From: Minisyncoccota bacterium
GTDB taxonomy: Bacteria; Patescibacteriota; Minisyncoccia; Phycocordibacterales; UBA9973
Length of the DNA: 52,013 nt
Assembly: GCA_041666225.1 (NCBI GenBank)
Contig: JBAYHJ010000006.1
Coordinates: forward strand, 1 to 52,013
Direction of reading: 5' to 3'
Made by a program: the position numbers and the translations under genes
Shown: positions 1 through 50,988 of the stretch, one piece after another
How positions within the stretch are numbered: the stretch's first letter is position 1
Layout: each line of letters begins with the position of its first letter
Notes under the pieces: model-generated
Seen by the model: the letters and a program-made list of their open reading frames with translations, nothing else
What the model was told of the DNA's origin: nothing
The model's database searches: none

Positions 1-354
1 ATCAATGAAAATTCCTAATGATGGATATTCTTTGTATTTAAAATCAAAATCTGTATTTTCATTTTTTATTTTTATCATTACATCGTAAACACTCGAACCT
101 TCTTCTATTTTTGTAGAATAAACGCTATTTAAAACTTTCAAACTAACACTCACCTCTAATGTGGAATTTAATTTTATTTTAGACTCAATGGTCTGATTGC
201 CTATTTCTTTTTCTTCTACGGAAATATTTTGGGATAAATTTAAACTTTCAGAATAATCAAGGGTTTGTACATTCGTAAATTTTACAAAACAAAAAATAGC
301 TATGATTAGAATTACTGAGATACTTATTAAAATTTTAATATATTTTTTTGACAT
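1..354 (-). CDS. DUF4430-like membrane-anchored protein, N-terminal part only (open to window edge); putative cobalamin-binding/uptake accessory protein
   Basis: ATG at 354-352, absent from the ORF track because the frame stays open to position 1. My translation is MSKKYIKILISISVILIIAIFCF... (TM anchor) ...KYKEYPSLGIFID. It sits directly behind a cobalamin-riboswitch-like leader. Confidence 0.5.
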   Translation of the reverse strand, partial: MSKKYIKILISISVILIIAIFCFVKFTNVQTLDYSESLNLSQNISVEEKEIGNQTIESKIKLNSTLEVSVSLKVLNSVYSTKIEEGSSVYDVMIKIKNENTDFDFKYKEYPSLGIFID

Positions 355-360
355 AAAATT

Positions 361-515
361 AAAAATTCCTGCCGAAAGCAGGAATTTTTAATTAAAAAGA
401 TATATAAATCTTCCTGCTCGGGAAACACCATTGTATTAAGACCGGACTTACCTCTTTCGAGTATTACCGTTGCGGCACAGTGGAGGAATCTCACCTCACT
501 TCCAAATACATTGGT
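361..515 (-). promoter_or_regulatory. Cobalamin (B12) riboswitch-like leader with intrinsic terminator expression platform
   Basis: The minus strand reads GGAAGTGAGGTGAGATTCCTCCACTGTGCCGCAACGGTAA...GGTAAGTCCGG, resembling the conserved cobalamin aptamer core. It is followed by hairpin AAAAATTCCTGCTTTCGGCAGGAATTTTT (361-389). GCAGGAA occurs twice, which allows an antiterminator alternative. Confidence 0.65.
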
Positions 516-534
516 TTAAATTTTAAAAAGACAA

Positions 535-1056
535 CTAAGCGACCAATACAACTTTCTCTGCAACCACAACTTTCTTTTCTGCTTTAAGTACCCATTTTTC
601 GATTGCTGGTGAGAGCACTATAGCAAAAGATACATTTCCTAGCAAGTGAAGAAGGGTGAATGGAATCTGCCCTATCACTGACACCATAAAAGATTGATGA
701 AAAAATAGTGGTCCAATCGTTAGTCCGGTTACAGCATCATAAATAATTGTGGCAACCAGAGCGTAAGATGCATAACTTTTCCAACCAGAACGATTCTTAA
801 AGTAATATGAGGCTCCTAGTCCAACTGCTCCATAAGCAAGAGCTGTAATAATAGTCCATATACCTAGTCCTGAGGTCACAGAATCAAACAAGACAATACT
901 TAGGAATCCGAAAGCAAAAGTTACCAATTTACCATAAACCTTACCAAATGGCATGATTGTAGCCATTATAGGCTCCACATTCGGTGCACGAAAAGGTATA
1001 AGCCTAAATAAAAAGACAGATAAAAAAACAACAATATATTTGGTCTTACTTTTCAT
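535..1056 (-). CDS. Polytopic membrane protein, ECF S-component/DUF6580-like putative vitamin transporter component
   Basis: 173-aa ORF that is hydrophobic throughout. N-terminal FRLIPFRAPNVEPIMA resembles the DUF6580 signature as I recall it. It lies between nrdJ and the B12 riboswitch. Confidence 0.4.
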   Translation of the reverse strand: MKSKTKYIVVFLSVFLFRLIPFRAPNVEPIMATIMPFGKVYGKLVTFAFGFLSIVLFDSVTSGLGIWTIITALAYGAVGLGASYYFKNRSGWKSYASYALVATIIYDAVTGLTIGPLFFHQSFMVSVIGQIPFTLLHLLGNVSFAIVLSPAIEKWVLKAEKKVVVAEKVVLVA

Positions 1057-1088
1057 TCGTAATTCTTAATTATTAATTCGTAATTATT

Positions 1089-3413
1089 TTACACTATATC
1101 ACAAACACCAGAAACACAAGCAAGCTCTCTTTTGACTTCTGTCTCATCTTTTATTTCATAAGTAATAATTTTTGAGAAATCAAAATCAGGCATCTTACTT
1201 ATAAGTTCTTTATATTTCTTTTCATCAATCGCTTCATATGGAGCAAGTTGATAAACGTGGTTACTTCTTGGTAAGAAAGATAAACCTCCTACAATATCCC
1301 AATTTTGGTAAAGCCAGTGAGCAACTTGTATCCATTCATTTTCCCCTACTGAAATAGTTACCGATGGATTATGCTCAGTATAATTTACTTTAACAATTTT
1401 CCAATGTTCCAATTGATCAATAGCAGAAATATCATCTTTACAAATTGCACCCTCTGGAGCTTTCATTGGAAATTCTAGAACAAAAGTATTTGCATCATCA
1501 TTAGTCTGCCCTACTTCAGGATAATAAGGTACTCCTTGATCTTTCATCATTTTAAAAAGTGAATCAGTCGCGGAAATACGAATACGGCGAATATAGTATG
1601 GTGCATGGCGTGGATGCATACCTGAAGCACAGTCTACTGTTTGAGAAACAGTTCCAGATGGCTTCACTGCTGTGATACAAGTAGATTCACTTATACCAAA
1701 TCTTTTTGCATATATTTTATTTACTCGAATTGATTCGAGACGAAGTTTTGTCAACATAGCTCCATCTCGAGAAAGTTTTGAATCCCATTGTCCTGTTACA
1801 GAAACTCCTAGTAATCTTTCCTCCTCACAATTCTTTTTCCACTCCTTTCCTAAGTATCCAAATTTTGTAAGAGTTGATTGATATGTACCCAAGATAGTAG
1901 CAACGCGGACTTTTCTTAAAAGATCTTCTTCTGTATCTTCAGACCGAGCAACAACTTCGGATAAATTACAAAATTGTCTTGATCTTAAAATAATTTCTCC
2001 ACAAGGGTTTGTACCCATTTCTCCAATATAATCTTTTGATACTTCAATGCGACGTTTAGGAAGAGATGTATATAAAGAGCCACGATTAAATATACCTCTT
2101 TCGCCACTTCCTGATTCCATAAGCGATATCCATTCTTTTAAGAATTGAGTTTCGGTTGGTTTTGTGTTGTAGACAGCAGAATTATTGGCAAGCATACGTT
2201 GACCTTCATTGACCCAAAACTGGCCATTCTTTGAATCACGCATATCTTGATCGTCTAAATCAGATAGTGAAATAAGGGCACTTCGGCGAACTCCACCTGA
2301 AACCACACACTCACCTATTTTACAAATAATGTCATGAGCATCGATATTGCGAAGATGTCTTCCTTGTCGACGCAAAATTCTCTCACGTGTAAATCCAAGT
2401 AAATTTATAAGTGGTTGAGGTCCTGATGATTTTCCTCCCATTATTTTAAGTCGAGCTCCTGCTGGACGAAGAAGTGAAAAATCAAAATCAACATCTTCCC
2501 CGTTAAACCATGTTTTCATTCCATGAACAAACGCATCGGCCCAACCTTCTTTTGTATCAGGGATAACATAAGTTGGTAATTTTTTATTTGATTGAATTTT
2601 AATTTGTGGAAGTGATTGAATATTATTACTCTCAACAGAAAAACCAACTCCAGTTCCACACATTGAAATATAAATTATATCTCCAAAATCTTGAAAAGTT
2701 GAAGGTGCAACAAAAGAACAATTATAAGCACAGACATTTGTTTTTTCTGCCGCATTACCAGCAAATTGCAAAAGTCGCATCGAAGGCATAGCTTCTTGTT
2801 TTAAAATTGCTTCACGAATTTCAGTATACTCATTATCTTTTAGCATGTCACCCATCTTGCCTTTCATGAAATTCATATAACGATCAATCGTCTCAATCCA
2901 AGTTTCTCTTCTTCCCTCTTCTTCAATCCATTTTGCATATGATCGATAATAAACAAATTCAGAAAGTGGGTTTCTAAAATATTTTTTACTCTCATCAGTT
3001 AATTTTTTTACGTGTTCAGGCACAGAATAACCATGAGCACGTAGTCGAGCTCTTTCTTGTCGGTAGAGAATATAATTTTTTGATGTTACCACATAGTCAG
3101 AAAGCATCAACTGCTTCTCTACGGTGTCTTGAATTATCTCAACTGTAGGTAAAAAATCGCGATTACCCATTGCCATTGCCTCTACTTCTACTGCAACTTT
3201 TTTGGCAACAACTAAAGCTTCATCCTGACCGCCTTCACCACCTGCAAGCATTGCTTTATTAATAGCATTCGCAATTTTTTCAACATCAAAAGGAACAACT
3301 TCTCCATCCCTTTTTTGAACGCCTTTAATAAAATAATTCTTACTAACTTTTTTTACAACTTTTCGGACAGAACTTTTATTTTTAGCACTGGATACTTTCT
3401 TTTTTGTGGACAT
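1089..3413 (-). CDS. nrdJ: Adenosylcobalamin-dependent ribonucleoside-triphosphate/diphosphate reductase (class II RNR) with N-terminal ATP-cone
   Basis: 774 aa. ATP-cone-like VQKRDGEVVPFDVEKIANAINKA, active-site NPCGEI, a C-terminal cysteine pair CVSGVCDIV, and a lysine-rich N-terminal tail. Confidence 0.9.
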   Translation of the reverse strand: MSTKKKVSSAKNKSSVRKVVKKVSKNYFIKGVQKRDGEVVPFDVEKIANAINKAMLAGGEGGQDEALVVAKKVAVEVEAMAMGNRDFLPTVEIIQDTVEKQLMLSDYVVTSKNYILYRQERARLRAHGYSVPEHVKKLTDESKKYFRNPLSEFVYYRSYAKWIEEEGRRETWIETIDRYMNFMKGKMGDMLKDNEYTEIREAILKQEAMPSMRLLQFAGNAAEKTNVCAYNCSFVAPSTFQDFGDIIYISMCGTGVGFSVESNNIQSLPQIKIQSNKKLPTYVIPDTKEGWADAFVHGMKTWFNGEDVDFDFSLLRPAGARLKIMGGKSSGPQPLINLLGFTRERILRRQGRHLRNIDAHDIICKIGECVVSGGVRRSALISLSDLDDQDMRDSKNGQFWVNEGQRMLANNSAVYNTKPTETQFLKEWISLMESGSGERGIFNRGSLYTSLPKRRIEVSKDYIGEMGTNPCGEIILRSRQFCNLSEVVARSEDTEEDLLRKVRVATILGTYQSTLTKFGYLGKEWKKNCEEERLLGVSVTGQWDSKLSRDGAMLTKLRLESIRVNKIYAKRFGISESTCITAVKPSGTVSQTVDCASGMHPRHAPYYIRRIRISATDSLFKMMKDQGVPYYPEVGQTNDDANTFVLEFPMKAPEGAICKDDISAIDQLEHWKIVKVNYTEHNPSVTISVGENEWIQVAHWLYQNWDIVGGLSFLPRSNHVYQLAPYEAIDEKKYKELISKMPDFDFSKIITYEIKDETEVKRELACVSGVCDIV

Positions 3414-3634
3414 ACTTTTTAAATTTTAGTTGATAATGGTCCCCAGATGTTTTCGGGTTTATATTATACCCCTACCTGAACTCTAAAGCCAAGCAAAATT
3501 TCCAAAAATAAACACTATGAAAAAATTTTAAGAATACGTCAAATATTTTTTAAAAAGAAGTAAAAATACACCACAAAAAGACTACTATTAAAGGGTATTT
3601 CTCTCTTAAAAATTTCTTGCTAAAACAAAATTAA

Positions 3635-3668
3635 TTTGCCCCCGAAAATTACAATTTTCGGGGGCAAA
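3635..3668 (-). terminator. Intrinsic terminator after Cys-rich paralog 1
   Basis: GCCCCCGAAAATT/AATTTTCGGGGGC 13-bp stem followed by a T-rich tract on the minus strand, 20 nt beyond the restored stop codon at 3688. Confidence 0.7.
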
Positions 3669-3687
3669 TTATCAAAATTTTTATCTT

Positions 3688-5399
3688 TTAATATACTTCC
3701 TGTTGATAACATCTCTCGCAATACACAATCTCCGGTCTCTCGGGTGCATAGGATGTTTCAAATTCATTGGAGCAACCGGACTTCATGCAAGATCTGTGCC
3801 ATAATTTCATGGGATTACGTTGTATAATTCTTTCTTCGTGCCTACAATTAGAACAAAACCTAGGGATAGGAAGATCATTCTCTTATAAAACTGGAATTCC
3901 TCTGGAATCATCTTAAAAGCCCGAGTACACTGGTGATTACATGTTCTTTGATGTCCACATTCTATAATCTTACCTAAGATATCATCATTTATATCCTTGA
4001 TATTGTCTGGAATATCTTCATTTTTAATGTCTATTTGGTAGTTTCTTTCTTCTTTGTCTTTCCATTTGTAGCCTTGAGATATGGCTTCTTCTTTAGTTAA
4101 GGGGAAGTACTCTTGAGCAATGGTTTCGTTGTAACAGAATGGACTTAATTCACTTGGGAAGAACTCTCCGTACTTATATACCCTTCCCTTACTGTCTATG
4201 TAGGGCATATCGTTCATGTGCTGGATGATTTTAGGTACTAATTCTTCGTATTGTTCTTTTGTGTATTGTTTATTAAGGATACAATACTTCTTGCCATGTA
4301 AACTTATACAAGCAAAGCAGTCAGAACAATTAACACACAAATGAATTAGTTCAGAATTTTTGTTTCCTTTACAGTGAGAAAAAAATTTTGTCATATATCC
4401 CCCATCAGCGGCTAGAGAAGATTCATAAATAAGTTCATTGTTTAAACCACCAGATATATCATAACAATCCTTCGCACCATTAAACATTCTCCAACAATAT
4501 TTAATATTTTCTCCTTCAACCATAAAACAATTTTTTGCATTTTTAGAATTGACTATATTGTCCCCAGTTGATTCTATGCTATTTATAATATTGGCGAATC
4601 GATGAATTTTTTGTTTAATTAATTCTTGAAACTCATTTTTAGAATTATTAATAAAAGAATAAGACCCCATATTAAAAGTATCAATTATTTTAAAATATTC
4701 TTCTTTTGAATATTTAATATTTCTAATGTAATAATTTTTATTCCTTAAATTCGAACACATAAAACAATTACTACAATTTCGACAATCAAAAAGAAAATAT
4801 GAATCTAAACAATCACTACAATTATTTAAAAAATGGGAATTATAAATCTTTCTAGTTATAAAATTTTCATAACAAAATTCAGAATTATAAACATAATAAC
4901 AATCAACAAGATTTTTACTCTTATCAACAAGTCTTGAGTAAGACACATCTTCACAGTGTGTTGCATTAGAAAGATAAATATTTTTTGAATAACCAGTATA
5001 GTTAGTATATTCAGAATTTGTATTCCCAAGCCCCCACAAATTTATGTTCGGTGTTACGTCCAATAATTCTTTCCATTGAATAAAAAAGTTTTTTGAAAAA
5101 TCATAATCTCTTCCATAATTTAACCCGTCCCATTTATCACCATACCAGCAATCATGACAATATATAGGAAATTTATTAAAAGTAGAATTATTCGTTATTA
5201 TATTTTTATTACATAAATCACATTTTCTTCTATTCAAGATTCCTTCATTTCGCCAAATAAATCGTCGCTGCAACCTACAATCAGGACAAAAGGTTGGTGG
5301 AGGAACTTTAATCTTCTCATAAAACAAAAAATCATCTGGCTCGATAGTGAAGTCGTTTTTGCAATTCTGACAGTTTTTGTTTTCTACTTTATCTTGCAT
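3688..5399 (-). pseudogene. Cys-rich zinc-ribbon/repeat protein family, paralog 1, frameshifted near the C-terminus
   Basis: The track ORF 3807..5399 ends in nonsense (...KRMIFLSLGFVLIVG). Shifting one nucleotide after ATG 3878-3876 restores NLPIPRFCSNCRHE...IVYCERCYQQEVY* ending at 3688, matching the other paralogs. Confidence 0.8.
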
Positions 5400-5439
5400 A
5401 TAATTATAATTTTACATCTACGCTATAGCTGAGATGTAA

Positions 5440-7137
5440 TTAATACACTTCTTTCTGATAACACTCTTTACAGTATATAATTTCTGGTCTTTTGGGAGCG
5501 TAGGTTGTCTCAAATTCATTTGTACAGCCATCTTTCATACATTTACGATGATATAGTACCATAGGATTTCTTAATTTCAATCGATTCTTATATCTTTCAT
5601 CAGGATGGCATCTTGGAATTGGTATATTCATCTTTTTATAAAATTGAAGTTCTGATGGGGTTATTTTAAAAGCTCTCCCAGAAATCTCACACTCAATAAC
5701 TTCACCTAAAATAGAATCATCTATATCTTTAATATCATCTGGTATATCTTTAGCTTTTAGAGTAATCGTATATTTATTATTAATTTTTTCTTTATAATTA
5801 TATCCTCTCTCTAATATTTCTTCTCTAGTTAGTGGAAAATGATCATTCGCGACTGTTTCATTATATCCAAATGGGGATAATTCATACGGGAAAAATTCTC
5901 CATATTTATATACTCTACCTTTGTTATCTATATATGGCATATCGTTCATGTGCTGTTTAATTTTAGGAATTAATTCTTCATACTCTTCTTTGGTATATTG
6001 TTTATTTAAAATACAGTATTGTTTATTTTTTAAACCAATACACAAAAATAGGTTTGAGGAGGATTGACATAAATCACTATATTCAACTGTATCTAAGGCA
6101 GGCTTACCTTCAATAATAAATTTTATATTTTGACTATTTTCAGAACCACCATGCGCATGCTCATAGGCAAGTTCAGCTTTCATATAACTAACATCCATTC
6201 CATCTTTTGATTTGACTACTCTATAACCATAATTAACATTTTCTGAACCGTAACTATTAAACAATGATTTACAATTACTGCTATCTCTAATAACATCACC
6301 AGTGGTTTTAGGGCAATTTACAATTCTTCCATATTTTCTAGGATAACTTAGTGAGATTTCCCAAAATTCTTTAATAGTTTTTTCAATAAAAATACTACTC
6401 CCAAAATTTAATTCGTTAATTTTTTTATCATATTCCTCTTTTGAATATTGTTTATTCCAAATACAATGAGTTTTATTTTGAAGATTTACACAACCAAAAC
6501 AATCTTGGCAATTATTACAATCTAAAATGAAGTTACAATTTATACAATTTAAGGACCAGTATGCGTATTTACATTTATAATTTTTAAGTACATTAATACT
6601 TTGATAAATCATTTCACTTTCAGTAGCATTAAAAGAATCAACAATTTGTTTAGATTTATCTACATTATTAGAATAATATACGTCTTCACTATCCCACAAT
6701 ATTGAGTAAGACAAATAAACATTTTTAGAGCTATCAACAAAGTTTGCATATTCTGAATTTATACATTCACCTAAGTGCCGAATACTTTGTCTTGGAACTT
6801 CGTCAAATAATTTTTTAAATTGATTAAAACATGTTTTTAAAAAATCACATTCATATCCGTACGAGGTTGCTTCCCAATTATCACTCTTCCAACATTCAGG
6901 GCAGTAGACCGGAAAAGAAACTTTATCATCATACATAGAGATTATATTTTTCTTACACATATCACATTTTCTTTTGTATAAAGACCTTTCATTTCTCCAT
7001 ATCATCCGACGGGCAAAACGACAGTGCGGGCAAAAAGTTGGCGGAGGAACTTTAATCTTCTCATAAAACAAAAAATCATCTGGCTCGATAGTGAAGTCAT
7101 TTTTACAATTTTGGCATTGTTTTGTCTCATTTTTCAT
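5440..7137 (-). CDS. Cys-rich zinc-ribbon/repeat protein family, paralog 2
   Basis: 565 aa. N-terminus QCQNCKNDFTIEPDDFLFYEKIKVPPPTFCPHCR, two CxxCxxCFGC...NKQY(T/S)KEEY blocks, C-terminus YCKECYQKEVY. No signal peptide or TM segment. Confidence 0.85.
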   Translation of the reverse strand: MKNETKQCQNCKNDFTIEPDDFLFYEKIKVPPPTFCPHCRFARRMIWRNERSLYKRKCDMCKKNIISMYDDKVSFPVYCPECWKSDNWEATSYGYECDFLKTCFNQFKKLFDEVPRQSIRHLGECINSEYANFVDSSKNVYLSYSILWDSEDVYYSNNVDKSKQIVDSFNATESEMIYQSINVLKNYKCKYAYWSLNCINCNFILDCNNCQDCFGCVNLQNKTHCIWNKQYSKEEYDKKINELNFGSSIFIEKTIKEFWEISLSYPRKYGRIVNCPKTTGDVIRDSSNCKSLFNSYGSENVNYGYRVVKSKDGMDVSYMKAELAYEHAHGGSENSQNIKFIIEGKPALDTVEYSDLCQSSSNLFLCIGLKNKQYCILNKQYTKEEYEELIPKIKQHMNDMPYIDNKGRVYKYGEFFPYELSPFGYNETVANDHFPLTREEILERGYNYKEKINNKYTITLKAKDIPDDIKDIDDSILGEVIECEISGRAFKITPSELQFYKKMNIPIPRCHPDERYKNRLKLRNPMVLYHRKCMKDGCTNEFETTYAPKRPEIIYCKECYQKEVY

Positions 7138-7167
7138 ACATTATAGTCTTGTCCTTTTACACTATAA

Positions 7168-7196
7168 ATTATACGTCAATCTTTATATTTATTCAA
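7168..7196 (-). promoter_or_regulatory. Sigma70-like promoter of paralog 2 (TTGAAT-17-TATAAT)
   Basis: Minus strand has TTGAAT (7196-7191), a 17-nt spacer, then TATAAT (7173-7168). The same block precedes paralogs 3 and 4. Here a 30-nt leader follows. Confidence 0.45.
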
Positions 7197-11196: not shown

Positions 11197-13134
11197 TTAC
11201 ATTTCGCTAAGTTTAAATCCCCTAACTAAAGATCCGAGTAAAATAGATAGTTTCATTGTCGCAACTCCAACAACCTTATCTCCCCCTCCATAATAAATAT
11301 ATAATAAATCCCCTTTCAATATCATTCCACAAGGAAAAACAACATTGTTTACTATTCCAACTTTTTCATATTCTTCTTCGGGTTCAAAGATAGCATCAGA
11401 CGAACGAGCAAGTACAATTGCGGGGTCTTTTAGGTCAAGCAACAAAACTCCCACCCTATAAGTATTATGACTCTTTGAAACTCCATGATAAAGTAACAGC
11501 CAGCCATATTTTGTTTTAATAGGTGGAGCTGATATCCCCACTTTTGAACTATCCCATGAATTTACCCGTGGACCAATAATCCGAATACATTTTTTAATAA
11601 CATCGCTATTAAAATCAAGAGAAGAAAGATAATCACCACAAATTTCATTTCCAACTCTATGAGCAACAAAGTATCCATCTTTTAGTTTTTCTGGGAAAAT
11701 ACAAGTATCTTTATCGTCGAATCCAGGAGGTGTGATAAGTGACGGTTTACTCCAGTTCCACTTATGAGAGAGAAAATCATTAGACGATATAGAAGAGACA
11801 GCAACTCGAGGAGGCCCTATACCATCATATGCGGTGTAACAAATATAAATATTTTTGCCTATCAAAACCATTCGTGGATCTTCACATCCAGAATTACCTG
11901 GAACTTTTTTCATTTCAAAATCTTCTCTAGGAATATAAATCGGGTCAGGCAACCTTTCAGAAATACTAAATCCATCATTGCTCGTTGCATACCCAATATA
12001 TGAAGTATCATCATCAGAAAGAGTGCGATATAAAATATGTATTTTATTTTTAAGATAAATAGCTGCTGGATTGAAAGTTGCTTTTGATTCCCACACATTA
12101 TCCTCCTTGGGAGTTATTATAGGATTTGTTAAACCACGCTTGAATCTCCAATCATCAGAAGTTTCAACATACATGCTTGAAATTAAATCTTTTAAACTAA
12201 TATAAGCAACACAAGTAGTGGTATCTGCTGCCCCATAATAAATACTTAGGGTATCTTTTTCGACTAGTGCTCCTGTTGGAAAAATGACGTTAGAAATATA
12301 TCCGGATAATTCATAAGATTCTTCTGGAGCTAATATTGGGCCCCTTGTCCTTCCAATTATTTTTGTTGGATCACTTGCATCAAGTAATAGTGCTTCTATT
12401 CCAAAAATGCGATCTAGATTTTCTGGGGACTGAAAATAATTTTGTATATGTGAATATATAAGGAGCCAACCATATTTAGTTTTAACTGGAGGTGTCCCAA
12501 CTTCTAGGTGATCGTAAGAATTGCGTCGAAAATCTACAGAGTGAGTTTCTATATTCTTTGTCCACTCTTTCCAAAAAGATTCGTCCCATAATTGTTCTAT
12601 CCTATCAAACTGCGCAATTGCCATTTTAGATGGTGGCATATCTGTATGAACCGAGAAAATAACTGTTATCTTTCCATTTATTCGTTCTGGAAAAAGAGTC
12701 ATCGCTTTTGCATTAAAAGGAGTTACCAAGTGACGTTCATCCGCATTTTTTAAATCTTTTGAAATAGCAACAGCAACTTTGATATTATCAGCATTAAAAG
12801 GATACCCTGATAGGGCAGTATAAAAAATATAATATTTCCCTTCAAAATAAGTCACTCTTGGATCTTCACACCCATGAATATCCCAAGATTCAGTAGGAAC
12901 AATAAATGGAGCTCTTTCTTCAAAATGAATTCCATCTTTACTTTTTCCAACCCCAATTATTGAGGTCTGTTGTTGGACTACTATTTTATCGACAGCAGAT
13001 ATGGCTCTATAAAATCCATAAATTGTTTTACCTTTTTTGATAGGACACATATTAAAAGTCGCAAACTCTTCCCAATAATGATCTTTATTGGGAATAAGAA
13101 TCGGATTGTGTTCTGACCTTTTTAATACATACAT
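11197..13134 (-). CDS. Tandem double-domain GH130-family glycoside phosphorylase/hydrolase
   Basis: 645 aa with two homologous halves. Each carries ...GCEDPR... and KYGWLL(I/L)YH...Y..G..LLD, as seen in GH130 beta-mannoside phosphorylases. Confidence 0.75.
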   Translation of the reverse strand: MYVLKRSEHNPILIPNKDHYWEEFATFNMCPIKKGKTIYGFYRAISAVDKIVVQQQTSIIGVGKSKDGIHFEERAPFIVPTESWDIHGCEDPRVTYFEGKYYIFYTALSGYPFNADNIKVAVAISKDLKNADERHLVTPFNAKAMTLFPERINGKITVIFSVHTDMPPSKMAIAQFDRIEQLWDESFWKEWTKNIETHSVDFRRNSYDHLEVGTPPVKTKYGWLLIYSHIQNYFQSPENLDRIFGIEALLLDASDPTKIIGRTRGPILAPEESYELSGYISNVIFPTGALVEKDTLSIYYGAADTTTCVAYISLKDLISSMYVETSDDWRFKRGLTNPIITPKEDNVWESKATFNPAAIYLKNKIHILYRTLSDDDTSYIGYATSNDGFSISERLPDPIYIPREDFEMKKVPGNSGCEDPRMVLIGKNIYICYTAYDGIGPPRVAVSSISSNDFLSHKWNWSKPSLITPPGFDDKDTCIFPEKLKDGYFVAHRVGNEICGDYLSSLDFNSDVIKKCIRIIGPRVNSWDSSKVGISAPPIKTKYGWLLLYHGVSKSHNTYRVGVLLLDLKDPAIVLARSSDAIFEPEEEYEKVGIVNNVVFPCGMILKGDLLYIYYGGGDKVVGVATMKLSILLGSLVRGFKLSEM

Positions 13135-13137
13135 ATA

Positions 13138-14322
13138 TTATTCAATTTCTCTTTTATTATTTTTGATTAATTTAAATTCTTTATCCTTCTTTAGATCATC
13201 AATTAATTCTTTTAATTTCATTGAGGCAACACAGACAAATTTATCAGCTCCACCATAATAAACAATCAGTTCTCCTTTTTTAACAACAGCACCACAAGAG
13301 TAAATTACTCCCCATTTATGTCCATTGTTTTCATAATCTTCTTCAGGTTCAAGTATTGGACTTTTTGATCTATATAAAATTTTTGTAGGGTCTTTCAAGT
13401 CAAGCAAAATTGCACCCATTCTATATCTATCAGGATTTTTATGATCCATTGCATGATAAAGAAGAAGCCAACCTTCTTTTGTTTTTATAGGGGAAGGGCC
13501 AATACCACGGAACCAACTATCCCAACTTCTACTTGGATCAATTGGTCTTGTATTATTACTTTTTATAAATTTTTTCCCATCAAACTCATCTAAATTATCA
13601 AAATAATCCACTAATATGTGGGGGTAAAAACTATGAATAATAGCAAATTTACCATTTATACGTTCTGGAAAAAGAACCCAGTTTTTATTAATTTCTCCTG
13701 GAGGAGAAATCATGACAGCTTTTTTCCAATTCCACTTTTTCTTTTTAAAATCTTCAAGTTTTATTGAGGTTAAAGCAAGTCGGACAGATCCCCATCCATC
13801 AAATGCTGTGAAAATCATATAAACAGTATCGTCTATCAATACAACTCTTGGGTCTTCACACCCACCACTCCAACCACCACCTGAGAGATAATCAATTTTA
13901 GGTAAATTCTCATTATAATTAAAAAATCTTTTATAGACATGATAAGTTGGTCTACCGTCGATATTTAAACCATCATGTGTATAGGCATAACCCAAAACAG
14001 ATGAATCATCCTCGCCTACTGCTCTATAAATAATATGAACAATACCATCATGCTCAAAAGCAGTTGGATTAAAAGTGGCCTTTGATTCCCATGGATAATT
14101 ACTCGGACTAATAATTGGGTTATGAGCGAGTTTTTTTAGTCTAATTGTTTCTCCTTCTTTCTTTACTATTTTTTTCTTTTTAATTAAAACTTTTGATTTC
14201 TTTACTATTTTTTTAGAAGAAGTTTTTTTTGTTTCTTTTTTAGCAACCTTAACAACCTTAGGTTTTTTATTTAAGTTTACTTTTTTTACTGCTTTTTTAA
14301 TTTTTTTCTTTTTCTCAATCAT
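13138..14322 (-). CDS. GH130-family glycoside phosphorylase with a roughly 60-aa lysine-rich N-terminal tail
   Basis: 394 aa. MIEKKKKIKKAVKKVNLNKKPKVVKVAKK... tail, then a GH130 core (GGCEDPRV, EGWLLLYHAMD, YRMGAILLD). Confidence 0.75.
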   Translation of the reverse strand: MIEKKKKIKKAVKKVNLNKKPKVVKVAKKETKKTSSKKIVKKSKVLIKKKKIVKKEGETIRLKKLAHNPIISPSNYPWESKATFNPTAFEHDGIVHIIYRAVGEDDSSVLGYAYTHDGLNIDGRPTYHVYKRFFNYNENLPKIDYLSGGGWSGGCEDPRVVLIDDTVYMIFTAFDGWGSVRLALTSIKLEDFKKKKWNWKKAVMISPPGEINKNWVLFPERINGKFAIIHSFYPHILVDYFDNLDEFDGKKFIKSNNTRPIDPSRSWDSWFRGIGPSPIKTKEGWLLLYHAMDHKNPDRYRMGAILLDLKDPTKILYRSKSPILEPEEDYENNGHKWGVIYSCGAVVKKGELIVYYGGADKFVCVASMKLKELIDDLKKDKEFKLIKNNKREIE

Positions 14323-18053: not shown

Positions 18054-19835
18054 TTAATATACTTCTTGCTGATAGCACTTCTCACAATATAATAAATCAT
18101 TTTCATTTATGTAATTTGTCTCAAATTCTACATTACAATGTTTACTTTCATGGGAATGAACAGTATTATTTTTATAAGAATTATTATCTGTGCCATCACC
18201 CGTACACTGACATTTTCTTTTTACTGTTTGTAACAAAGTTCTTTGTTTAAGACGCTCACCACTTCTACATTTAAAACAATATCTTGGTAACGGTAAATTC
18301 AACTTCCGATAAAACTGCAATTCTTCGGGAATTATTTTAAAAGCAGTAGTACATTGGTGGGAACAATTGCCATTACACATACATGAAATGGTCTCTGAAG
18401 TTATATCATTATTCACATCCTTTATGTCATCTGGCAAATCTTCAGATTTTAATGTTATTAAATAATTTCTATCTTTTGAATCTCTCCATAAATAATTTTC
18501 TTTTATTGCTTCTTCTTTACTTAAGGTGAAATATTCTATTGCAATAGTTTCATTATAAGCAAAAGGTGAAAATTCGGCTGGAAAAAATTCTCCATATTTA
18601 TAGATAATTCCCTTTTTACTGACATAAGGCATCTCATCCATATGTTTTTTTATTTTATTAACAAGTTCAAAATATTCTTCTTTTTTATATTGTTTATTGA
18701 AAATGCAATATTGTTTTTTCTTTAATCCTACACAACCAAACAGGTCAGATGACCCACTACACATATAAGAATACTCAATATCGTGAACATTTTCTTGAAC
18801 ATTATAACAAAACTTAATATTATTTACTCCTATCCCACAAGCCGAACACTCATAGACAAATCGAGCAGAATCGCCCCATGAAGTATAATCATAGCAATCC
18901 TTGCAACCAGGCAATTCTTGTAAATATTGACAATATTTAATATTTTCTCCTTCTCTGACAAGATCTGAATTTTTAATATTTTTTGAGTGGCTAATATAAT
19001 TACCACTTACATCCACATTTTGATAGCCTTCAATAAATTTTCTAGGAAATTTTTGCCAAAATGTTTTTGTTTCTTTCTTGATTTTTTCAAGACCTAAAAA
19101 TGAAGATAGGTTATATTCTTTTATTTTTTCTTTATATTCTTCTTTTGTATATTGTTTATTGTTTATATAATATTCTTTCTTTCTTAAACCAACACAACCA
19201 AAACAATCATGACAACCCACACAATTCAAGCAAAAAGCTAAATTAAAAGAACTCTCGCAGTGTGAAGAAAAAATGATATTAGAACAAGAAGTAAGCCAAA
19301 AACCTTCATAACATTTCTCACTTTTCCCACAATGAGAAGTATCAATACATTCCTTTAAAAAGGTCACTCCATTGCAATACATGCAATCTTCTCCATTCTT
19401 TCCATTGAAAGATAAATAACAATTTTTAGGGTCAGTAAAATTATTACAATAATCACTATTTACTCCATTTACTAAGTTCAAATTTTTTAGTGGTACAGAA
19501 TAAAGCAAATCACTAAATTGTTCAAAAAAGTTTTTAAAAAAATCATAATCTCGCCCATATTCCATCGAATCCCATTTATCAGAAAGCCAAACATCTTTTT
19601 CATATACTTTTACTGGAGAGTCAGGTGAAAAAGCTGAAAATATATCCTTGCCAGAAAAATCACTTTTTCTTTTAAATAAACTATTTTCATTTCTCCATGC
19701 CATTCTTCTCTGTGCACGACACAAATAACAAAAAGTTGGAGCTGGAACATTCATGTTCTCATAAAAAGAAAAATCATCTGGCTCAATAGTGAAATCTTGG
19801 TGACAGTTTTGGCAATTCTTTGTTTGTGAATTCAT
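18054..19835 (-). CDS. Cys-rich zinc-ribbon/repeat protein family, paralog 3
   Basis: Family N-terminus MNSQTKNCQNCHQDFTIEPDDFSFYENMNVPAPTFC and C-terminus YCEKCYQQEVY. I chose the start at 19835 (M10 of the track ORF) because TATAAT lies 6 nt upstream, as in paralog 4. Confidence 0.8.
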   Translation of the reverse strand: MNSQTKNCQNCHQDFTIEPDDFSFYENMNVPAPTFCYLCRAQRRMAWRNENSLFKRKSDFSGKDIFSAFSPDSPVKVYEKDVWLSDKWDSMEYGRDYDFFKNFFEQFSDLLYSVPLKNLNLVNGVNSDYCNNFTDPKNCYLSFNGKNGEDCMYCNGVTFLKECIDTSHCGKSEKCYEGFWLTSCSNIIFSSHCESSFNLAFCLNCVGCHDCFGCVGLRKKEYYINNKQYTKEEYKEKIKEYNLSSFLGLEKIKKETKTFWQKFPRKFIEGYQNVDVSGNYISHSKNIKNSDLVREGENIKYCQYLQELPGCKDCYDYTSWGDSARFVYECSACGIGVNNIKFCYNVQENVHDIEYSYMCSGSSDLFGCVGLKKKQYCIFNKQYKKEEYFELVNKIKKHMDEMPYVSKKGIIYKYGEFFPAEFSPFAYNETIAIEYFTLSKEEAIKENYLWRDSKDRNYLITLKSEDLPDDIKDVNNDITSETISCMCNGNCSHQCTTAFKIIPEELQFYRKLNLPLPRYCFKCRSGERLKQRTLLQTVKRKCQCTGDGTDNNSYKNNTVHSHESKHCNVEFETNYINENDLLYCEKCYQQEVY

Positions 19836-19841
19836 ATGTAA

Positions 19842-19870
19842 ATTATATTCCAATTTACCCATTTATTCAA
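19842..19870 (-). promoter_or_regulatory. Promoter of paralog 3: TTGAAT-17-TATAAT, 6 nt before ATG (leaderless architecture)
   Basis: Minus strand has TTGAAT (19870-19865), a 17-nt spacer, TATAAT (19847-19842), 6 nt, then ATG at 19835. Confidence 0.5.
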
Positions 19871-20010: not shown

Positions 20011-21759
20011 TTAATATACTTCTTGCTGATAACATTTTTCACAATAAACAATCTCAGGTCTTTCTGGAGAGTATGATGTTTCAAATTCGTTAGTACAATT
20101 TACCCCGCCCTCATGGCGGTGGCCAGGATTCTTACACATACAAGATCTATGCCAGAGCTTCATTGGGTTACGTTTTTTGAGTCTGCTTTCATGGCGACAA
20201 TTTGGACAGTACCTTGGTAAGGATAAATTCATTTGTTTATAAAATTGGAATTCTGTTTTTGTTATTTTAAATGCACTTGTACAAGTATCTGAAAAGTGAC
20301 CACACTCAATAATTTGATCTAAAATAGAATCAGTAGCTTCATTTATGTTTTTAGGGATTTCATTATTTTTCATTGTAATTTTATAATTTCTTTCATCTCT
20401 TTCCCTCCAACGATATCCCAAGTCTAAGGCTTCTTCTTTTGAAAGAGGAAATACTTCTTGAATGATTGATTCATTATAAGCAAAAGGAGAAAATTCTATC
20501 GGAAAAAATTCTCCATATTTATATTCAATACCCCTTTCGTTAATATATGGCATATCATTCATATGTTTTATTATCTTTTCTCGTAATTTAAAATATTCTT
20601 CTTTCGTATATTGTTTATTAAAAATACAATATTCCTTATTGCGAAGACCTATACAACCAAAGATATCATGACAACCTACCGAATAGTGACAATACTCAAG
20701 AGAACGGCCTTCAGGAAAACATCCATTTGAAAAGAGAACATGATTGAGGTTCGTCCCACTTTTTACAGTCTCATATACTTCAATTGAATTTTCACCATAA
20801 AATGAATAATCATAACAATCTTTTGTGGTTGGAAGATAGGTAAGAAAACAATATTTTGAATCTTCAACCCCGTTGGATTGATAAATCATTTTTGAATTTT
20901 TAGAATGATTAACATAGTCACCAGTCACCTCAATATTTTGCTTCCCGTGTATGTATTTTTGAGGATATTTAATAGAAGCCTCATAAATTTCTTTTAAAAT
21001 AATATCAACATCTTTAGAAGAAAAATCTGTGAGTTCAATAATTTTTTTAATGTATTCTTCTTTTGTGTATTGAACATTTTCAATACAGTTTTGTTTATTT
21101 CTTAAGTTAGTACACTTAAAACAATTAGAGCACCCTACAAGATTTTTGGAGAAATAAATATCGAAAGAATCCTCACAGTCAATAGAATAAAAAGCTCGAT
21201 AACATTTTTTTACATTAACACATTCATAACAATGTTCACTTTCGTAAATCATATAGCAATCAAAACAATTCTTGACATCTGCACTGGTATCACAATAAGA
21301 TGAATCTTCAACTCGGTCTGCGTAAAATACTAAATAAGCATTTTTTAGCCTCCCTGCTCCATTACAATATGGACTATTCACCATTGAAGGTTGCTCTACA
21401 CCCAAAGACATCCATGGTACTTGTCCAAGTATTTCTTTCATCTGCTCAAAAAATGGTTTAGAAAAATCATAATCGCGAGCATAAGAAAAAGGGTCCCAGC
21501 CATCACTCCACCAACAAGTATTACAATATATGGTTATTGGTTCACTATCGTGATACATACTGAAAGTTTCCTTTTTACAAAGTCCGCAAACTCTTTTATA
21601 CAAAGCACGTTTATTATAGTGATATAGACGCCTTTTAAGTCGACAATCAGGGCAAAATGTTGGTGGAGGAACTTTGATCTTTTCATAGAAAGAAAAATCA
21701 TCTGGCTCAATAGTGAAGTCATTTTTGCAATTCTGGCAATTTCTTGTTTCTGAATTCAT
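20011..21759 (-). CDS. Cys-rich zinc-ribbon/repeat protein family, paralog 4
   Basis: 582 aa. MNSETRNCQNCKNDFTIEPDDFSFYEKIKVPPPTFCPDCR ... YCEKCYQQEVY, with two CxxC..C..L(R)NK..CI.N.QYTKEEY blocks. Confidence 0.85.
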   Translation of the reverse strand: MNSETRNCQNCKNDFTIEPDDFSFYEKIKVPPPTFCPDCRLKRRLYHYNKRALYKRVCGLCKKETFSMYHDSEPITIYCNTCWWSDGWDPFSYARDYDFSKPFFEQMKEILGQVPWMSLGVEQPSMVNSPYCNGAGRLKNAYLVFYADRVEDSSYCDTSADVKNCFDCYMIYESEHCYECVNVKKCYRAFYSIDCEDSFDIYFSKNLVGCSNCFKCTNLRNKQNCIENVQYTKEEYIKKIIELTDFSSKDVDIILKEIYEASIKYPQKYIHGKQNIEVTGDYVNHSKNSKMIYQSNGVEDSKYCFLTYLPTTKDCYDYSFYGENSIEVYETVKSGTNLNHVLFSNGCFPEGRSLEYCHYSVGCHDIFGCIGLRNKEYCIFNKQYTKEEYFKLREKIIKHMNDMPYINERGIEYKYGEFFPIEFSPFAYNESIIQEVFPLSKEEALDLGYRWRERDERNYKITMKNNEIPKNINEATDSILDQIIECGHFSDTCTSAFKITKTEFQFYKQMNLSLPRYCPNCRHESRLKKRNPMKLWHRSCMCKNPGHRHEGGVNCTNEFETSYSPERPEIVYCEKCYQQEVY

Positions 21760-24099: not shown

Positions 24100-26199
24100 T
24101 TATTTACAAACTGTCCCAGTTGGTGGAGCAGTTAATTCTTTCGCAGCACCTGTACTATCTACACAATATAAATATTTATATTCTTCGGGAATTTGAGCTG
24201 AGGAATCATAATTGTTATAGATAGGAATTGCAAATGACCAATCTTTTGATGTTCCATAACAAAAACCAACCCCATTCGTTGTTTTTAATATTTTGTTTAA
24301 TAACTCTGAAATAGAACTAACTTCAGTGGTTGCTTTTTTTGTATGACCAATAGGTGAAAATAAAGACCCTGAACTTGGATTCATACAACTTCCATCTGCG
24401 TTTGATTTACTTCCATAAACCCTCTCTACATTAAATAAGTTAGTGGCAAGTTGCTTAAATGAAGATGTATCATTTTTAATTTTTGCCACTTCTGTATCAT
24501 TTATAAAATCTGTCATTAAAATAGACTTCTCTGGCATAAATATATTATTAGCAATATCAAAATCGTAATAAGTTGTTTTTAATGAAATATTTACCTTATT
24601 ATCACCTATACTTTTATCTTCAAAACCTATAATCTTCGAAAGAGGAACACTCAAATTTACATTGTATTGATATATATTATTATCTCCCTTTCCAACCCAA
24701 ACTTCAAAAGAATCTACCATCACAGAACCTAATATTTTTGATGAACTATCTTTTTCCTCATCAGAAATGTTTAATAAAAAATTATCTGAAATTTTACTTA
24801 ATAATTTTTTGGTTAACTGTCGGTCTGGAGTTATTTGATAATGATAAGTATCTACCCCTTTTATACTATCTTCTCCCTTTTCTATAACTTCTGCATTATT
24901 TATAAATTCATCGTATACACTGAGTGTTTCATCATCTAAATAAGAAGCAATCCCATTGGACAAAACTTTATATATATCAATCTTTTCAACTTTTGGTTTT
25001 AACCATCCAGAAAACAGTGATGACAACAAACCCGCTTCATTCTCATTCACTTTAATAACAACAGAACCTGGAGCTCCATCTTTCATTATCTGACTTAAAT
25101 CAGGAATAGATATAAATAAACTTGAGCCATTACTTTTTACATCTGTGGTAATGTAGTTTGGCAAAAGAGAACCTTTTAAAGTTATAAAACTATCAGAAAA
25201 AAGATCCTCTCCATTTTGATTTATAATGCCCATAATATTGATAGAGATAGAATCTTTATCTTGCGAAGAAACAGTTTCCCCACTAACCAACCCAGATGAG
25301 ATATTTGAAAAAGACGGAGAAGACACTTCTACACTTGTTTCTGTTTTATATGATTTTAAAGAAGATAAAACTTTTGAATTATTCAATAATAATATTTTGG
25401 GATCTTTTTTAATAAAAGGAATATTAAAATTTTTAAGACTTATATACCCCCCAGCAAAAACCCATACCCCACCAGAAAGAAGGAGTACAATTATTAGAGC
25501 AATGATCCATTTAACTGTATTATTATTTTTTTTATTGACTACTTCATATTTTGTTTTATCTACAGATGACATATCTTTTTCATATGAAGACAACATCGCT
25601 ATCTGAGATAAATTTTTTACAGGATAATTTTTGATGACATTATCAGTTGTTTCCTTTGTAGCTATAGGTATTGAATTATCTTTTGAAACGACAGAACCAA
25701 AAGAGTCAATTGCAACCTTAGGTATCAAGGCTGGAATTAATTCTTCTTTTTTAATAACTTCAATAAAGGTGTCTTTGGTCTCTTCTTTATCCAAAGGGGT
25801 GTTTATTTTTTGATTTACTATTTCTTCATTTTTTATCACAGGAACATTTTTAGGTATCCAAACCTTACTTACTTCTTTTTCTTCTTTGGGTATTTCTATT
25901 TTTATAGTATCAGCTTGTGATAATTCAATTTTCTCATCAACATTAATATCGGCAGAAAAAGAATCATGATAATGATCTTCTTTTTTGACTTCAATTTTTT
26001 CTGGGACAACAGCAACTACGGTTTCATTAATTTTAGGAACAATAACTTCTGCTTTAAATTCTAATTCAATAATAGAAAAAGCTTCATCGATATCTCCCTT
26101 ATGCCAACCAGCATTAATAAGCTTAGATATAATTAAATCTTTTGATACATTATTTCCAATTTGTTTTTTTATATAAGAAATCAATTCACTAGTTGTCAT
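24100..26199 (-). CDS. Large single-pass membrane protein of unknown function
   Basis: 699 aa. A small N-terminal domain (MTTSELISYIKKQIG...GWHKGDIDEAF), a charged linker, a TM segment WIIALIIVLLLSGGVWVFAGGYI, and a large C-terminal domain containing four cysteines. Confidence 0.5.
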   Translation of the reverse strand: MTTSELISYIKKQIGNNVSKDLIISKLINAGWHKGDIDEAFSIIELEFKAEVIVPKINETVVAVVPEKIEVKKEDHYHDSFSADINVDEKIELSQADTIKIEIPKEEKEVSKVWIPKNVPVIKNEEIVNQKINTPLDKEETKDTFIEVIKKEELIPALIPKVAIDSFGSVVSKDNSIPIATKETTDNVIKNYPVKNLSQIAMLSSYEKDMSSVDKTKYEVVNKKNNNTVKWIIALIIVLLLSGGVWVFAGGYISLKNFNIPFIKKDPKILLLNNSKVLSSLKSYKTETSVEVSSPSFSNISSGLVSGETVSSQDKDSISINIMGIINQNGEDLFSDSFITLKGSLLPNYITTDVKSNGSSLFISIPDLSQIMKDGAPGSVVIKVNENEAGLLSSLFSGWLKPKVEKIDIYKVLSNGIASYLDDETLSVYDEFINNAEVIEKGEDSIKGVDTYHYQITPDRQLTKKLLSKISDNFLLNISDEEKDSSSKILGSVMVDSFEVWVGKGDNNIYQYNVNLSVPLSKIIGFEDKSIGDNKVNISLKTTYYDFDIANNIFMPEKSILMTDFINDTEVAKIKNDTSSFKQLATNLFNVERVYGSKSNADGSCMNPSSGSLFSPIGHTKKATTEVSSISELLNKILKTTNGVGFCYGTSKDWSFAIPIYNNYDSSAQIPEEYKYLYCVDSTGAAKELTAPPTGTVCK

Positions 26200-30123: not shown

Positions 30124-30441
30124 TTAAATACTTGGATCTTTATATAAATACAAACCCTCCTTTGCTTCTTTTTCTTTAATTGCTTTAATATCAAAAGATT
30201 TAGTAACCTTATCTAATATTTTTTCATTAATAAAAACCTGTGATTCTACTGATATAGGTGTAATTTGAAATATTTGTTGATTTTTTATTTTATATAAAAG
30301 ATAAAAACTAAAAAGTACCAATAGTGCAAGAATAATAGAAAAAATATATAACAAATTGTTCCAATATATATGTGGATTTATCTTTTTAAAAGGAGCAAAA
30401 TTTTTTATATTATTTTTAATTTTGAATAGAAATTCTTTCAT
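30124..30441 (-). CDS. Small single-TM protein, last gene of the pilus assembly cluster
   Basis: 105 aa with one TM helix (LLYIFSIILALLVLFSFYLLY). No recognisable motif. Confidence 0.4.
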   Translation of the reverse strand: MKEFLFKIKNNIKNFAPFKKINPHIYWNNLLYIFSIILALLVLFSFYLLYKIKNQQIFQITPISVESQVFINEKILDKVTKSFDIKAIKEKEAKEGLYLYKDPSI

Positions 30442-30445
30442 AAAA

Positions 30446-31027
30446 TTAATTTAAACTTAAAATATTAAAAGATACATCTGCTTGCCATTTTGATACTTCT
30501 AAAACTTTTGGTTGTTTGACTTCTTTGTTTCCTGTAACTTCTATAACATCTCCGCCTCTTATTTGTTTTATATCTTTATTTAAATAAACTTGTGTAATAT
30601 TGACTTGATATGGAATATTCTCTACAAAAGAAACTGTCCTCATAACCTCTTGAAATGTTCCCGTTATCGATATTTTAATTGCTATGATATTTTTAGTTTT
30701 TGGGGGCATTTCAATACCCTGAACTATCACCTTGGATCCGAGGTTAGAACCAATTTCTTCTAAATAATCAACAAATGTATCAATTTTATTGGGATCTACA
30801 AAAAGACTGTTCACAGAATCTTGTAGTGATTTTATTTCTGTTACTTTTTCAGCAAATTTTGCTGCATTTTCTTTCTCCCCGATTTTTTTCTGTAAGGTTG
30901 TAAGAACAACAGAAATATGTTGGTCTTTATTTTTTATAATTTTTAAGAAAAAAACAAATAGAAAAACTGTTAGTATTGTAACAAAAATTGAAAATATGAG
31001 TTTAAAAATTGTGTGAGTTTTTTTCAT
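30446..31027 (-). CDS. PilO-like type IV pilus assembly protein
   Basis: 193 aa with an N-terminal TM helix, a coiled segment and an alpha/beta domain, directly downstream of the pilM/N fusion. Assignment rests on context and architecture only. Confidence 0.4.
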   Translation of the reverse strand: MKKTHTIFKLIFSIFVTILTVFLFVFFLKIIKNKDQHISVVLTTLQKKIGEKENAAKFAEKVTEIKSLQDSVNSLFVDPNKIDTFVDYLEEIGSNLGSKVIVQGIEMPPKTKNIIAIKISITGTFQEVMRTVSFVENIPYQVNITQVYLNKDIKQIRGGDVIEVTGNKEVKQPKVLEVSKWQADVSFNILSLN

Positions 31028-35761: not shown

Positions 35762-35789
35762 ATTTATATATTAACATATAACATATACG

Positions 35790-50978: not shown

Positions 50979-50988
50979 ATAACTTTTT

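Follow-up and report, generated by a model that had tools for sequence, protein, structure and literature searches.

A lineage-restricted family of cysteine-rich Patescibacteria proteins with finger-like ends is enriched beside VirD4/TraD-like ATPase genes

The closest described counterparts of the proteins reported here are found at their two ends, which resemble the finger families zf_Tbcl (PF13451, 'probable treble clef domain') and zf_Tbcl_2 (PF23477)/TIGR04272, two families of unknown function. For the interior, comparison is possible with LpxA, LpxD, GlmU and gamma-carbonic anhydrase, which form a left-handed beta-helix from hexapeptide repeats, and with TmAFP, a secreted insect antifreeze protein that folds as a Cys-rich beta-helix of ~12-residue coils with obligatory intra-coil disulfides at i, i+6. 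For the genomic context, the relevant proteins are the VirD4/TraD-like coupling proteins, which canonically recruit substrates. Genomes of the candidate phyla radiation (CPR) contain 5,713 VirD4-like homologs, 148 of which are located near virB4, and exaptation of these proteins has been raised (bioRxiv 10.1101/2025.01.22.634366). Here we describe five related genes (c1 to c5) on the minus strand of a 52,013-nt stretch of DNA from a Minisyncoccota bacterium (contig JBAYHJ010000006.1, hereafter called the window), together with the protein family to which they belong. This family is very large, lineage-restricted and chromosomal. The ~400-residue centre of its members matches nothing in Pfam, NCBIfam, PDB sequences or Foldseek, and the family is undescribed. 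New here is its genomic context: in other genomes, family genes are enriched immediately downstream of a VirD4/TraD-like ATPase gene, which hints at a shared role.

An earlier note on this DNA had picked out the five open reading frames as copies of one architecture, which is confirmed by their coordinates (Table 1) and by their end-to-end alignment with 44–51% pairwise identity. They sum to 8,642 nt, or 16.6% of the window. Patescibacteria have genomes of ~1 Mb or less, yet a single family occupies about one sixth of this 52-kb stretch. Searches yielded >7,800 matches, all named 'hypothetical protein', in 5,355 clusters at 50% identity (2,249 of them with E <1e-30), and at least 564 loci were found in a collection with one genome per species. 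Length is near-constant at ~550–600 amino acids (aa), and no domain fusions were present among the matches listed. All informatively labelled records are from Patescibacteria of the Parcubacteria/Paceibacteria group, the named lineages being Nomura-, Giovannoni-, Jorgensen-, Lipton- and Moranbacteria, Paceibacterota and Minisyncoccia. Many records carry generic or 'uncultured Candidatus Saccharibacteria' placeholder labels, and a few entered as Burkholderiales, Bacteroidales or Bdellovibrionales probably stem from mis-binned contigs. No member was found among 2.9 million viral contigs, in phage records or on plasmids, and a phage or plasmid origin was therefore rejected.

The survey of copy number and neighbourhoods in related genomes that the earlier note had proposed was carried out on 80 family-anchored loci, and it revealed both arrays and the ATPase enrichment discussed below. 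At least two copies are present at 50 of these loci, in co-oriented arrays of up to 12 copies, which fill one 21.8-kb stretch, and one metagenome-assembled genome contains at least 16 copies across three stretches. Within a locus, the best identity between copies reaches at most 70% (median 42%); for 97% of the genes, the closest relative is found in another genome, with a median identity of 64%. The c2 gene has an 88% identical ortholog in a locus from JGI 3300034058 (L081), in which four tandem family genes (189–6594) stand at the place of the c2-c1 pair of the window. Each of the two additional genes shares only ~50% identity with any copy in the window, which points to differential loss of ancient paralogs.

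For two ortholog pairs, dN/dS was 0.07 overall (0.074 for c2 and its L081 ortholog) and 0.05–0.12 in the cores, with dN lower in the cores than in the ends and dS at ~1, i.e., near saturation. These values indicate strong purifying selection throughout the proteins, and not the neutral divergence of the cores (dN/dS ~1) named in the earlier note. The low dN/dS together with the median same-locus identity of 42% led us to reject a recent origin by tandem duplication as well as an arms race, and for the same reason the suggestion that the family is diversifying is not supported. On these comparisons, the family is a stable toolkit of specialised ancient paralogs, with differential loss, and not an arms-race family, although copies have been gained or lost over time. 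As the paralogs are individually conserved, the cells appear to need many different versions.

The opposition between conserved ends and divergent cores, on which the earlier proposal had been built, stands only in relative terms. Identity between the paralogs in the window is 66–86% in residues 1–50 (residue numbers follow c2 throughout), 49–66% in the linker and 33–45% in the cores. Over the whole family, alignment columns have an entropy of 1.9 bits in the ends vs. 2.3–2.4 bits in the cores. Gene conversion was considered as the source of the near-invariant N-terminus and rejected, because codon identity is no higher there than elsewhere; no signal of gene conversion was found among the five copies in the window.

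The most frequent neighbour over the 80 loci is a gene for a soluble VirD4/TraD/TrwB-like P-loop ATPase, which was found at 25 of them (33 genes; neighbour counts are inflated by synteny among related genomes). The gap between the ATPase gene and the family gene has a median of 120 bp, and the two are nearly always co-oriented. The reverse search gave the same picture: a family gene is present within 8 kb in 60 of 79 ATPase-anchored loci and is directly adjacent in 37. The frequency of family genes is 26–32% at positions +1 to +3 downstream of the ATPase gene, 12–18% upstream, and 0–6% at a distance of at least seven genes.

This adjacency is seen in three recurrent gene layouts. Layout A reads S9, GrpE, family, PaaX-like, DnaK, a long ATPase (~700 aa), a genome-dependent number of zero to five family copies, RsmE, a short ATPase (~490 aa), DnaJ and family. 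Layout B consists of a protein with sigma-70 region 4 and a HARE-type helix-turn-helix (HTH), two proteins with an N-terminal transmembrane (TM) segment, the ATPase and a variable number of family copies, and layout C of the ATPase, CutA, x and two family copies. In many Paceibacteria, two paralogous soluble VirD4/TraD-like ATPases flank dnaK and dnaJ (e.g., L038:15996–18098 and L072:4885–6366). A small PaaX-like regulator, composed of an HTH and a Cas2-like PaaX_M domain (L027:12444–13019 and homologs in 15 loci), lies in divergent orientation between dnaK and the family genes, at a place where one might expect hrcA. The TM proteins of layout B (L060:4433–5821, L005:1930–2451 and homologs, ~20 loci) measure ~460 and 173 aa, have no Pfam or NCBIfam match and are always encoded 5' of the ATPase gene; they are possible candidates for membrane partners of the ATPase.

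Models of the TrwB/TraD DNA-binding domain match the ATPase, whose short form is 73–92% identical across species, an unusually high value for a coupling-protein homolog. These ATPases look like the orphan CPR homologs mentioned above, and the family offers the first concrete lead on the role of the thousands of such proteins that have no type IV secretion system (T4SS) nearby. The long form carries, besides a low-complexity tail, a genuine zf_Tbcl_2/TIGR04272 finger (43 and 44.9 bits). Such fingers are present in 55 of 160 ATPases; with identical sequences collapsed, they were aligned with hhalign to the family. They matched the second finger of its N-terminal module (N2; 96.2%, E=2.4e-9) and of its C-terminal module (C2; 90.5%, E=1.4e-6), whereas the first fingers of these modules, which served as controls, reached 17% (N1) and 0.7% (C1).

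The N- and C-terminal modules of the family proteins are repeats of each other, as had been noticed by eye and is now supported by BLASTP (E=9e-15). On profile comparison, each end module is composed of two different fingers, since N1 matches C1 (99.4%) and N2 matches C2 (97.6%), whereas N1 vs. N2 gives only 5%. The first finger shares with zf_Tbcl the pattern CxxC..F.(I/F)...(D/E)..FY.K...P.P..CP.CR..R and the layout of two CxxC knuckles in ~45 residues, for which AlphaFold2 (AF2) predicts a hairpin, a helix (residues 19–28), a knuckle and a second helix (37–45). Its cysteines, C8, C11, C36 and C39, are at least 95% conserved family-wide. The score against the Pfam model (18.8–19.9 bits, E=7e-4 to 1.6e-3, over model positions 4–44 of 48) is below the cutoff of 24, and, unlike in zf_Tbcl, the finger is fused to a second one and to a 400-residue body without match. 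Local structural matches of this finger to viral 'zinc-ribbon domain' proteins in BFVD have a probability of 0.99–1.0 and non-significant E-values (0.018 and 0.79); one of them superimposes with a root-mean-square deviation of 0.6 Å over 42 columns.

The second finger of both end modules shares the CxxC-x17-CxxC spacing of zf_Tbcl_2/TIGR04272, which is seen at C58/C61/C79/C82 and, in the C-terminal module, at C538-x17-C556-x2-C559. However, the first knuckle of the C-terminal copy of this finger is Cx4C or CxC, and the scores remain below the thresholds of 27 (Pfam) and 36 bits (NCBIfam), the best being 14.3 bits (E=0.035) for the C-terminal module of c4; in NCBIfam, no match was obtained. Furthermore, such a finger accounts for ~40 of 565 residues, and half of the family lacks the N-terminal site. 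The last 36 residues echo the second half-finger of the LIM proteins CRP1 and CRP2 (WH..C..C......YC..CY). This match is weak in the PDB (CRP1/2, E=0.026) and weaker in Pfam (E=0.69), ligand spacing and context differ, and a LIM-domain reading of the C-terminus was rejected.

Across 146 diverse members, the cysteines of a terminal site are retained or lost together, with phi values of 0.8–1.0. In this set, C61, C79 and C82 co-occur with a phi of 0.99–1.0 and are present in 49% of the members, and the cysteines of the first site of the C-terminal module co-vary with a phi of 0.8–0.93. This behaviour, which is that of tetrahedral metal ligands, supports the view that the end modules are zinc-finger modules. 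It also accounts for the absence of the second N-terminal site in c3 and c5 and for the loss of the zinc ligands in the first finger of the C-terminal module in c2 and its orthologs, as sites disappear as complete sets.

Between the end modules, two successive core regions are homologous to each other (E=3e-11), in line with the earlier description, and both carry the cap motif C.NC..CFGC..L.NK.YCI.N.QY(S/T)KEEY. The AF2 models of c2 and c4 agree on the layout, which in c2 numbers comprises the N-terminal module (1–95), a helix (103–111), solenoid A (~141–226), two helices (233–262), solenoid B (~299–376), a helix (383–399), the compact linker (396–480) and the C-terminal module (481–565). In the c2 model, strands cover residues 141–226 in core A and 299–376 in core B (pLDDT, the predicted local distance difference test, 84–98). 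The predicted template modelling scores (pTM; Table 1) indicate a fixed arrangement of the domains in the models. The linker is modelled with pLDDT >90 in both proteins, and five of its residues (G413, E414, P417, Y425 and E427) do not vary among 76 sequences.

The count of ~30 cysteines in the 565-aa copy was accurate: c2 has 30, and the other copies have 36, 38, 36 and 34; cysteine makes up 6.3% of residues. In the cores, the autocorrelation of cysteines is positive at every multiple of three, which defines a 3-residue grid. Cysteine occupies the core columns to 15–95% and is replaced by V, I, S, G or L, and the variable columns (15–88% Cys) show a phi of at most 0.38 and no pairing pattern. 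Because of this partial occupancy and the near-absence of covariation, the core cysteines do not look like disulfide pairs or cluster ligands, and a core built on disulfides or on an iron-sulfur or other metal cluster (CxxCxxCxxC) was rejected. They look like interchangeable small residues that pack the interior of a narrow solenoid. Ligand-like behaviour is confined to the cysteines of the terminal modules and is not seen for most of those in the core. TmAFP is similar in its ~12-residue coil and in the regular cysteines inside a narrow solenoid, but in the family the spacing is i, i+3, the cysteines are freely substituted without pairwise covariation, and Foldseek gave no match. Likewise, the hexapeptide proteins are short-repeat solenoids, but the repeat of the family is a 3/12-residue cysteine grid and not [LIV]-G-x4.

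Whole proteins found no match in Pfam, NCBIfam, PADLOC or PDB sequences, and neither did the linker and both cores when searched alone against Pfam. With PADLOC, zero matches were obtained at E-values up to 1 for four copies, and PHROGs gave weak matches exclusively to families of unknown function (e.g., phrog_15341 at E ~2e-3). Neither the c2 nor the c4 model had a significant Foldseek match in PDB or BFVD. The best echoes of c2 were left-handed beta-helix enzymes (E at least 0.057, probability at most 0.09, TM-score at most 0.17) and there were none for c4; as there is also no Hexapep match in Pfam, the left-handed beta-helix was rejected as a family assignment. The predicted zinc-capped solenoid with its cysteine grid matched no solved structure. 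A literature search for the family, for PF13451, PF23477 and TIGR04272, and for Cys-rich CPR paralog families found nothing relevant. The earlier conclusion that the proteins can be assigned to no characterised family is therefore upheld. The same applies to the reported lack of a signal peptide or TM segment. Neither was found in the window copies, whose N-termini lead straight into the first CxxC knuckle, and among 146 members the highest Kyte-Doolittle hydropathy of any 19-residue stretch is low (median 0.89), one outlier reaching 1.95. The proteins are cytoplasmic in character.

A dock-and-recognise design is suggested by the combination of invariant ends and linker, solenoid surfaces that are specific to each paralog and conserved in its orthologs, a rigid predicted geometry and the operon-like linkage to an ATPase with a shared finger. 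Through its near-invariant end modules and linker, every paralog would dock onto one common partner, most likely the machinery around the soluble, conserved VirD4/TraD-like ATPase, and the paralog-specific solenoid surfaces would bind different ligands. The family would then be a specificity-adaptor toolkit that presents clients to the ATPase, or cargo that is handed to a membrane channel. We propose this candidate function tentatively, as a possibility to be taken seriously. It preserves part of an earlier idea, as a specificity family is plausible in the form of many stable, specialised paralogs, though not of diversifying ones. If the link with the ATPase holds, it would represent a new lineage-specific machinery for client selection or export, likely relevant to the episymbiont lifestyle, and the ATPase, the membrane partners and the end modules would be defined targets for experiments.

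Several observations weigh against docking onto an ATPase-linked partner. The strong adjacency to a VirD4/TraD-like ATPase that would fit a type IV client is seen elsewhere but is absent in the window, which encodes no ATPase homolog. None of the five copies is near such a gene, and therefore any partnership must act in trans. The window copies are surrounded by unrelated genes, which encode a class II ribonucleotide reductase, a DUF475/TerC membrane protein, an aldose epimerase, an aldo-keto reductase, a tRNA-binding protein and a HigBA-like pair, and no conserved partner was found among them. In several genomes, two ATPase paralogs are adjacent without a family gene between them, and the loci counted are not phylogenetically independent. 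The solenoids are modelled with moderate confidence (pLDDT 60–75) in core A of both models and in core B of the c4 model. Finally, the small zinc finger that they share may reflect binding of both the family and the ATPase to something else, e.g., nucleic acid, and not to each other.

Instead of selecting clients, the family proteins might themselves be exported to the cell surface or the host by the ATPase and the two membrane proteins, with the ends serving as recognition signal. This is the cargo form of the docking model, and it would place the proteins outside the cell. Such a role would agree with substrate recruitment as the canonical task of coupling proteins, with the polar enrichment just downstream of the ATPase gene and with the two N-terminal-TM proteins 5' of it in a recurring layout. 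The absence of a signal peptide and the size of this multi-copy family in the tiny genomes of presumed episymbionts fit as well, and the interleaved dnaK, dnaJ and grpE genes could keep cargo export-competent. However, the C-terminus is a predicted folded zinc finger with a helix up to the last residue rather than a disordered, charged type IV tail, the lack of pairwise covariation of core cysteines does not indicate a disulfide-stabilised extracellular fold, and effectors or antigens that evolve fast would not be expected to show such strong purifying selection and ancient orthology. Also the ATPase, with its housekeeping-like conservation, is rarely located near virB4, and a coupling-protein homolog was reported to be non-essential for epibiotic growth in Southlakia. 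Export seems rather unlikely. A more specific variant would make the family the cargo of an unrecognised, T4SS-independent export route of Paceibacteria, consisting of an exapted ATPase, two membrane proteins and Hsp70, in which each paralog would be a host-directed effector or adhesin. The model for this is type VII secretion, where PE/PPE and Esx proteins with the FtsK-like EccC likewise constitute large signal-less paralog families in arrays beside an FtsK/TraD-superfamily ATPase and membrane partners. The likeness is one of analogy: there is no similarity to type VII substrates in sequence or fold, and selection here is strongly purifying. This variant would turn the family into a functional counterpart, in ultra-small episymbionts, of the type VII secretion PE/PPE repertoire, but we consider it decidedly improbable.

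Other explanations dispense with clients and cargo. Nucleic acids are common ligands of treble-clef and zinc-ribbon fingers, and the family might consist of nucleic-acid-binding scaffolds, in which basic end fingers would contact DNA or RNA, with the acidic solenoid as a rigid spacer or mimic and the ATPase, which has the same finger, as an FtsK/TraD-type DNA translocase. The end modules are indeed mildly basic (median net charges of +2 and +4.5), with Arg/Lys-rich helices following the first knuckle, the linker (median −6) and core A are acidic, and the DNA-binding-domain matches of the ATPase would fit. Nevertheless, these charges are modest and the N-terminal modules of c3 and c5 are net-negative, no known DNA- or RNA-binding domain was found in the Pfam and NCBIfam searches, and a scaffold role would not explain a dozen or more specialised paralogs in a small genome, so that this function appears quite unlikely. 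The ATPase link could also be mere inherited synteny, with an unrelated role for the family, e.g., as a structural or polymerising solenoid, as a metal or thiol buffer, or as an enzyme with its active site in the linker. The location of all five window copies among unrelated housekeeping genes would be expected in that case, the invariant linker residues E414, Y425 and E427 could form an active or binding site, and the cysteine content would suit a buffer. We consider this unlikely, since family and ATPase genes are adjacent in three distinct contexts and their association declines with gene distance, only the second sub-module has the finger in common with the ATPase, and the free replacement of core cysteines by V, I, S or G argues against metal storage. 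Least probable is the diversifying sensor or immune specificity family of the earlier note, in which variable cores would recognise invaders under diversifying selection. The conserved ends with more variable cores, the variation in copy number (two vs. four in the orthologous array, and the varying number between the two ATPases) and the HigB/HigA-like pair next to c5 speak for it, but the dN/dS of the cores and the ancient paralogs with conserved orthologs speak against it. Moreover, the sensor part of the proposal finds no effector domain, fusion or PADLOC match to lean on, the length is uniform, and the family was not found on viral contigs, phages or plasmids.

Table 1. Features of the window (JBAYHJ010000006.1, 52,013 nt), with residue numbers according to c2
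Feature	Position	Residues	Strand	Description
c1	3688-5399		minus	Disrupted copy, one 1-nt frameshift at 3873/3874; called ORF end at 3807
c2	5440-7137	1-565	minus	Intact, 565 aa; numbering reference; AF2 pLDDT 87.3, pTM 0.84
c2 finger 1 of N-module	6988..7137	1-50	minus	C8/C11/C36/C39 and F..F.FY....VP.PT.CP.CR..RR; resembles zf_Tbcl (PF13451)
c2 finger 2 of N-module	6853..6987	51-95	minus	C58-x2-C61-x17-C79-x2-C82; zf_Tbcl_2/TIGR04272 type
c2 core A	6403..6852	96-245	minus	Helix, predicted beta-solenoid of 12-residue xxCxxCxxCxxC units, cap motif, capping helix
c2 core B	5953..6402	246-395	minus	Second predicted solenoid, cap motif as in core A; dN/dS 0.05
c2 linker domain	5698..5952	396-480	minus	MPYID.KG..YKYGEFFP.ELSPF.YNET...; acidic, highly conserved
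c2 C-module	5443..5697	481-565	minus	Repeat of N-module; finger 2 (C533/C538/C556/C559) intact
c3	18054-19835		minus	593 aa from family-consistent start; N-module finger 2 without cysteines
c4	20011-21759		minus	582 aa; four terminal zinc sites all intact; AF2 pLDDT 82.6, pTM 0.86
c5	33785-35485		minus	566 aa; degenerate N-module finger 2 and C-module finger 1
Intrinsic-terminator-like hairpin	3632..3671		minus	18-bp stem and T-run, directly 3' of c1
Two overlapping sigma-70-like promoter matches	7140..7196		minus	5' of c2; consensus matches alone, number not above shuffle expectation

Within the window, the c1 gene had been described as decayed. It is indeed disrupted, but by a single frameshift, which consists of one missing base (minus strand, 3873–3874: ATG-A-TCTT) at a site where relatives show M-N-L/I and which is outside any homopolymer run >2. 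The frame downstream of it (3688–3873) encodes an intact LPIPRFCSNCRHEE...CYQQEVY tail with the normal stop of the family, and over its first 400 aa c1 shares 88% identity with the L081 ortholog, with a dN/dS of 0.071. In view of the intact downstream frame and this low ratio, c1 is either a very recent pseudogene or the product of an assembly error. For c3, an alternative upstream ATG at 19862 would yield 602 aa. The promoter-like matches 5' of c2 and the gap of 40 nt between c2 and c1 suggest that these two genes form an operon. Directly downstream of them, past the hairpin, a gene for a class II (B12-dependent) ribonucleotide reductase with an N-terminal ATP-cone is located (1089–3413, minus strand).

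All other genes to be mentioned are also on the minus strand. The HigB/HigA-like pair, i.e., a Gp49/DUF891 toxin-like and an HTH_3 antitoxin-like gene, is located directly upstream of c5 (35492–36098). Three open reading frames of 699, 441 and 426 aa (24100–26199, 48459–49784 and 49794–51074) had no Pfam match at E-values up to 1e-4. Two adjacent GH130 genes of the beta-1,4-mannooligosaccharide phosphorylase type are present at 11197–14322, the first of which encodes 645 aa with a GH130 match in two stretches. A PilM-like type IV pilus assembly gene (31033–32682) lies ~1 kb from c5, and the small open reading frames directly downstream of it (30124–31027) may be further pilus-assembly genes.

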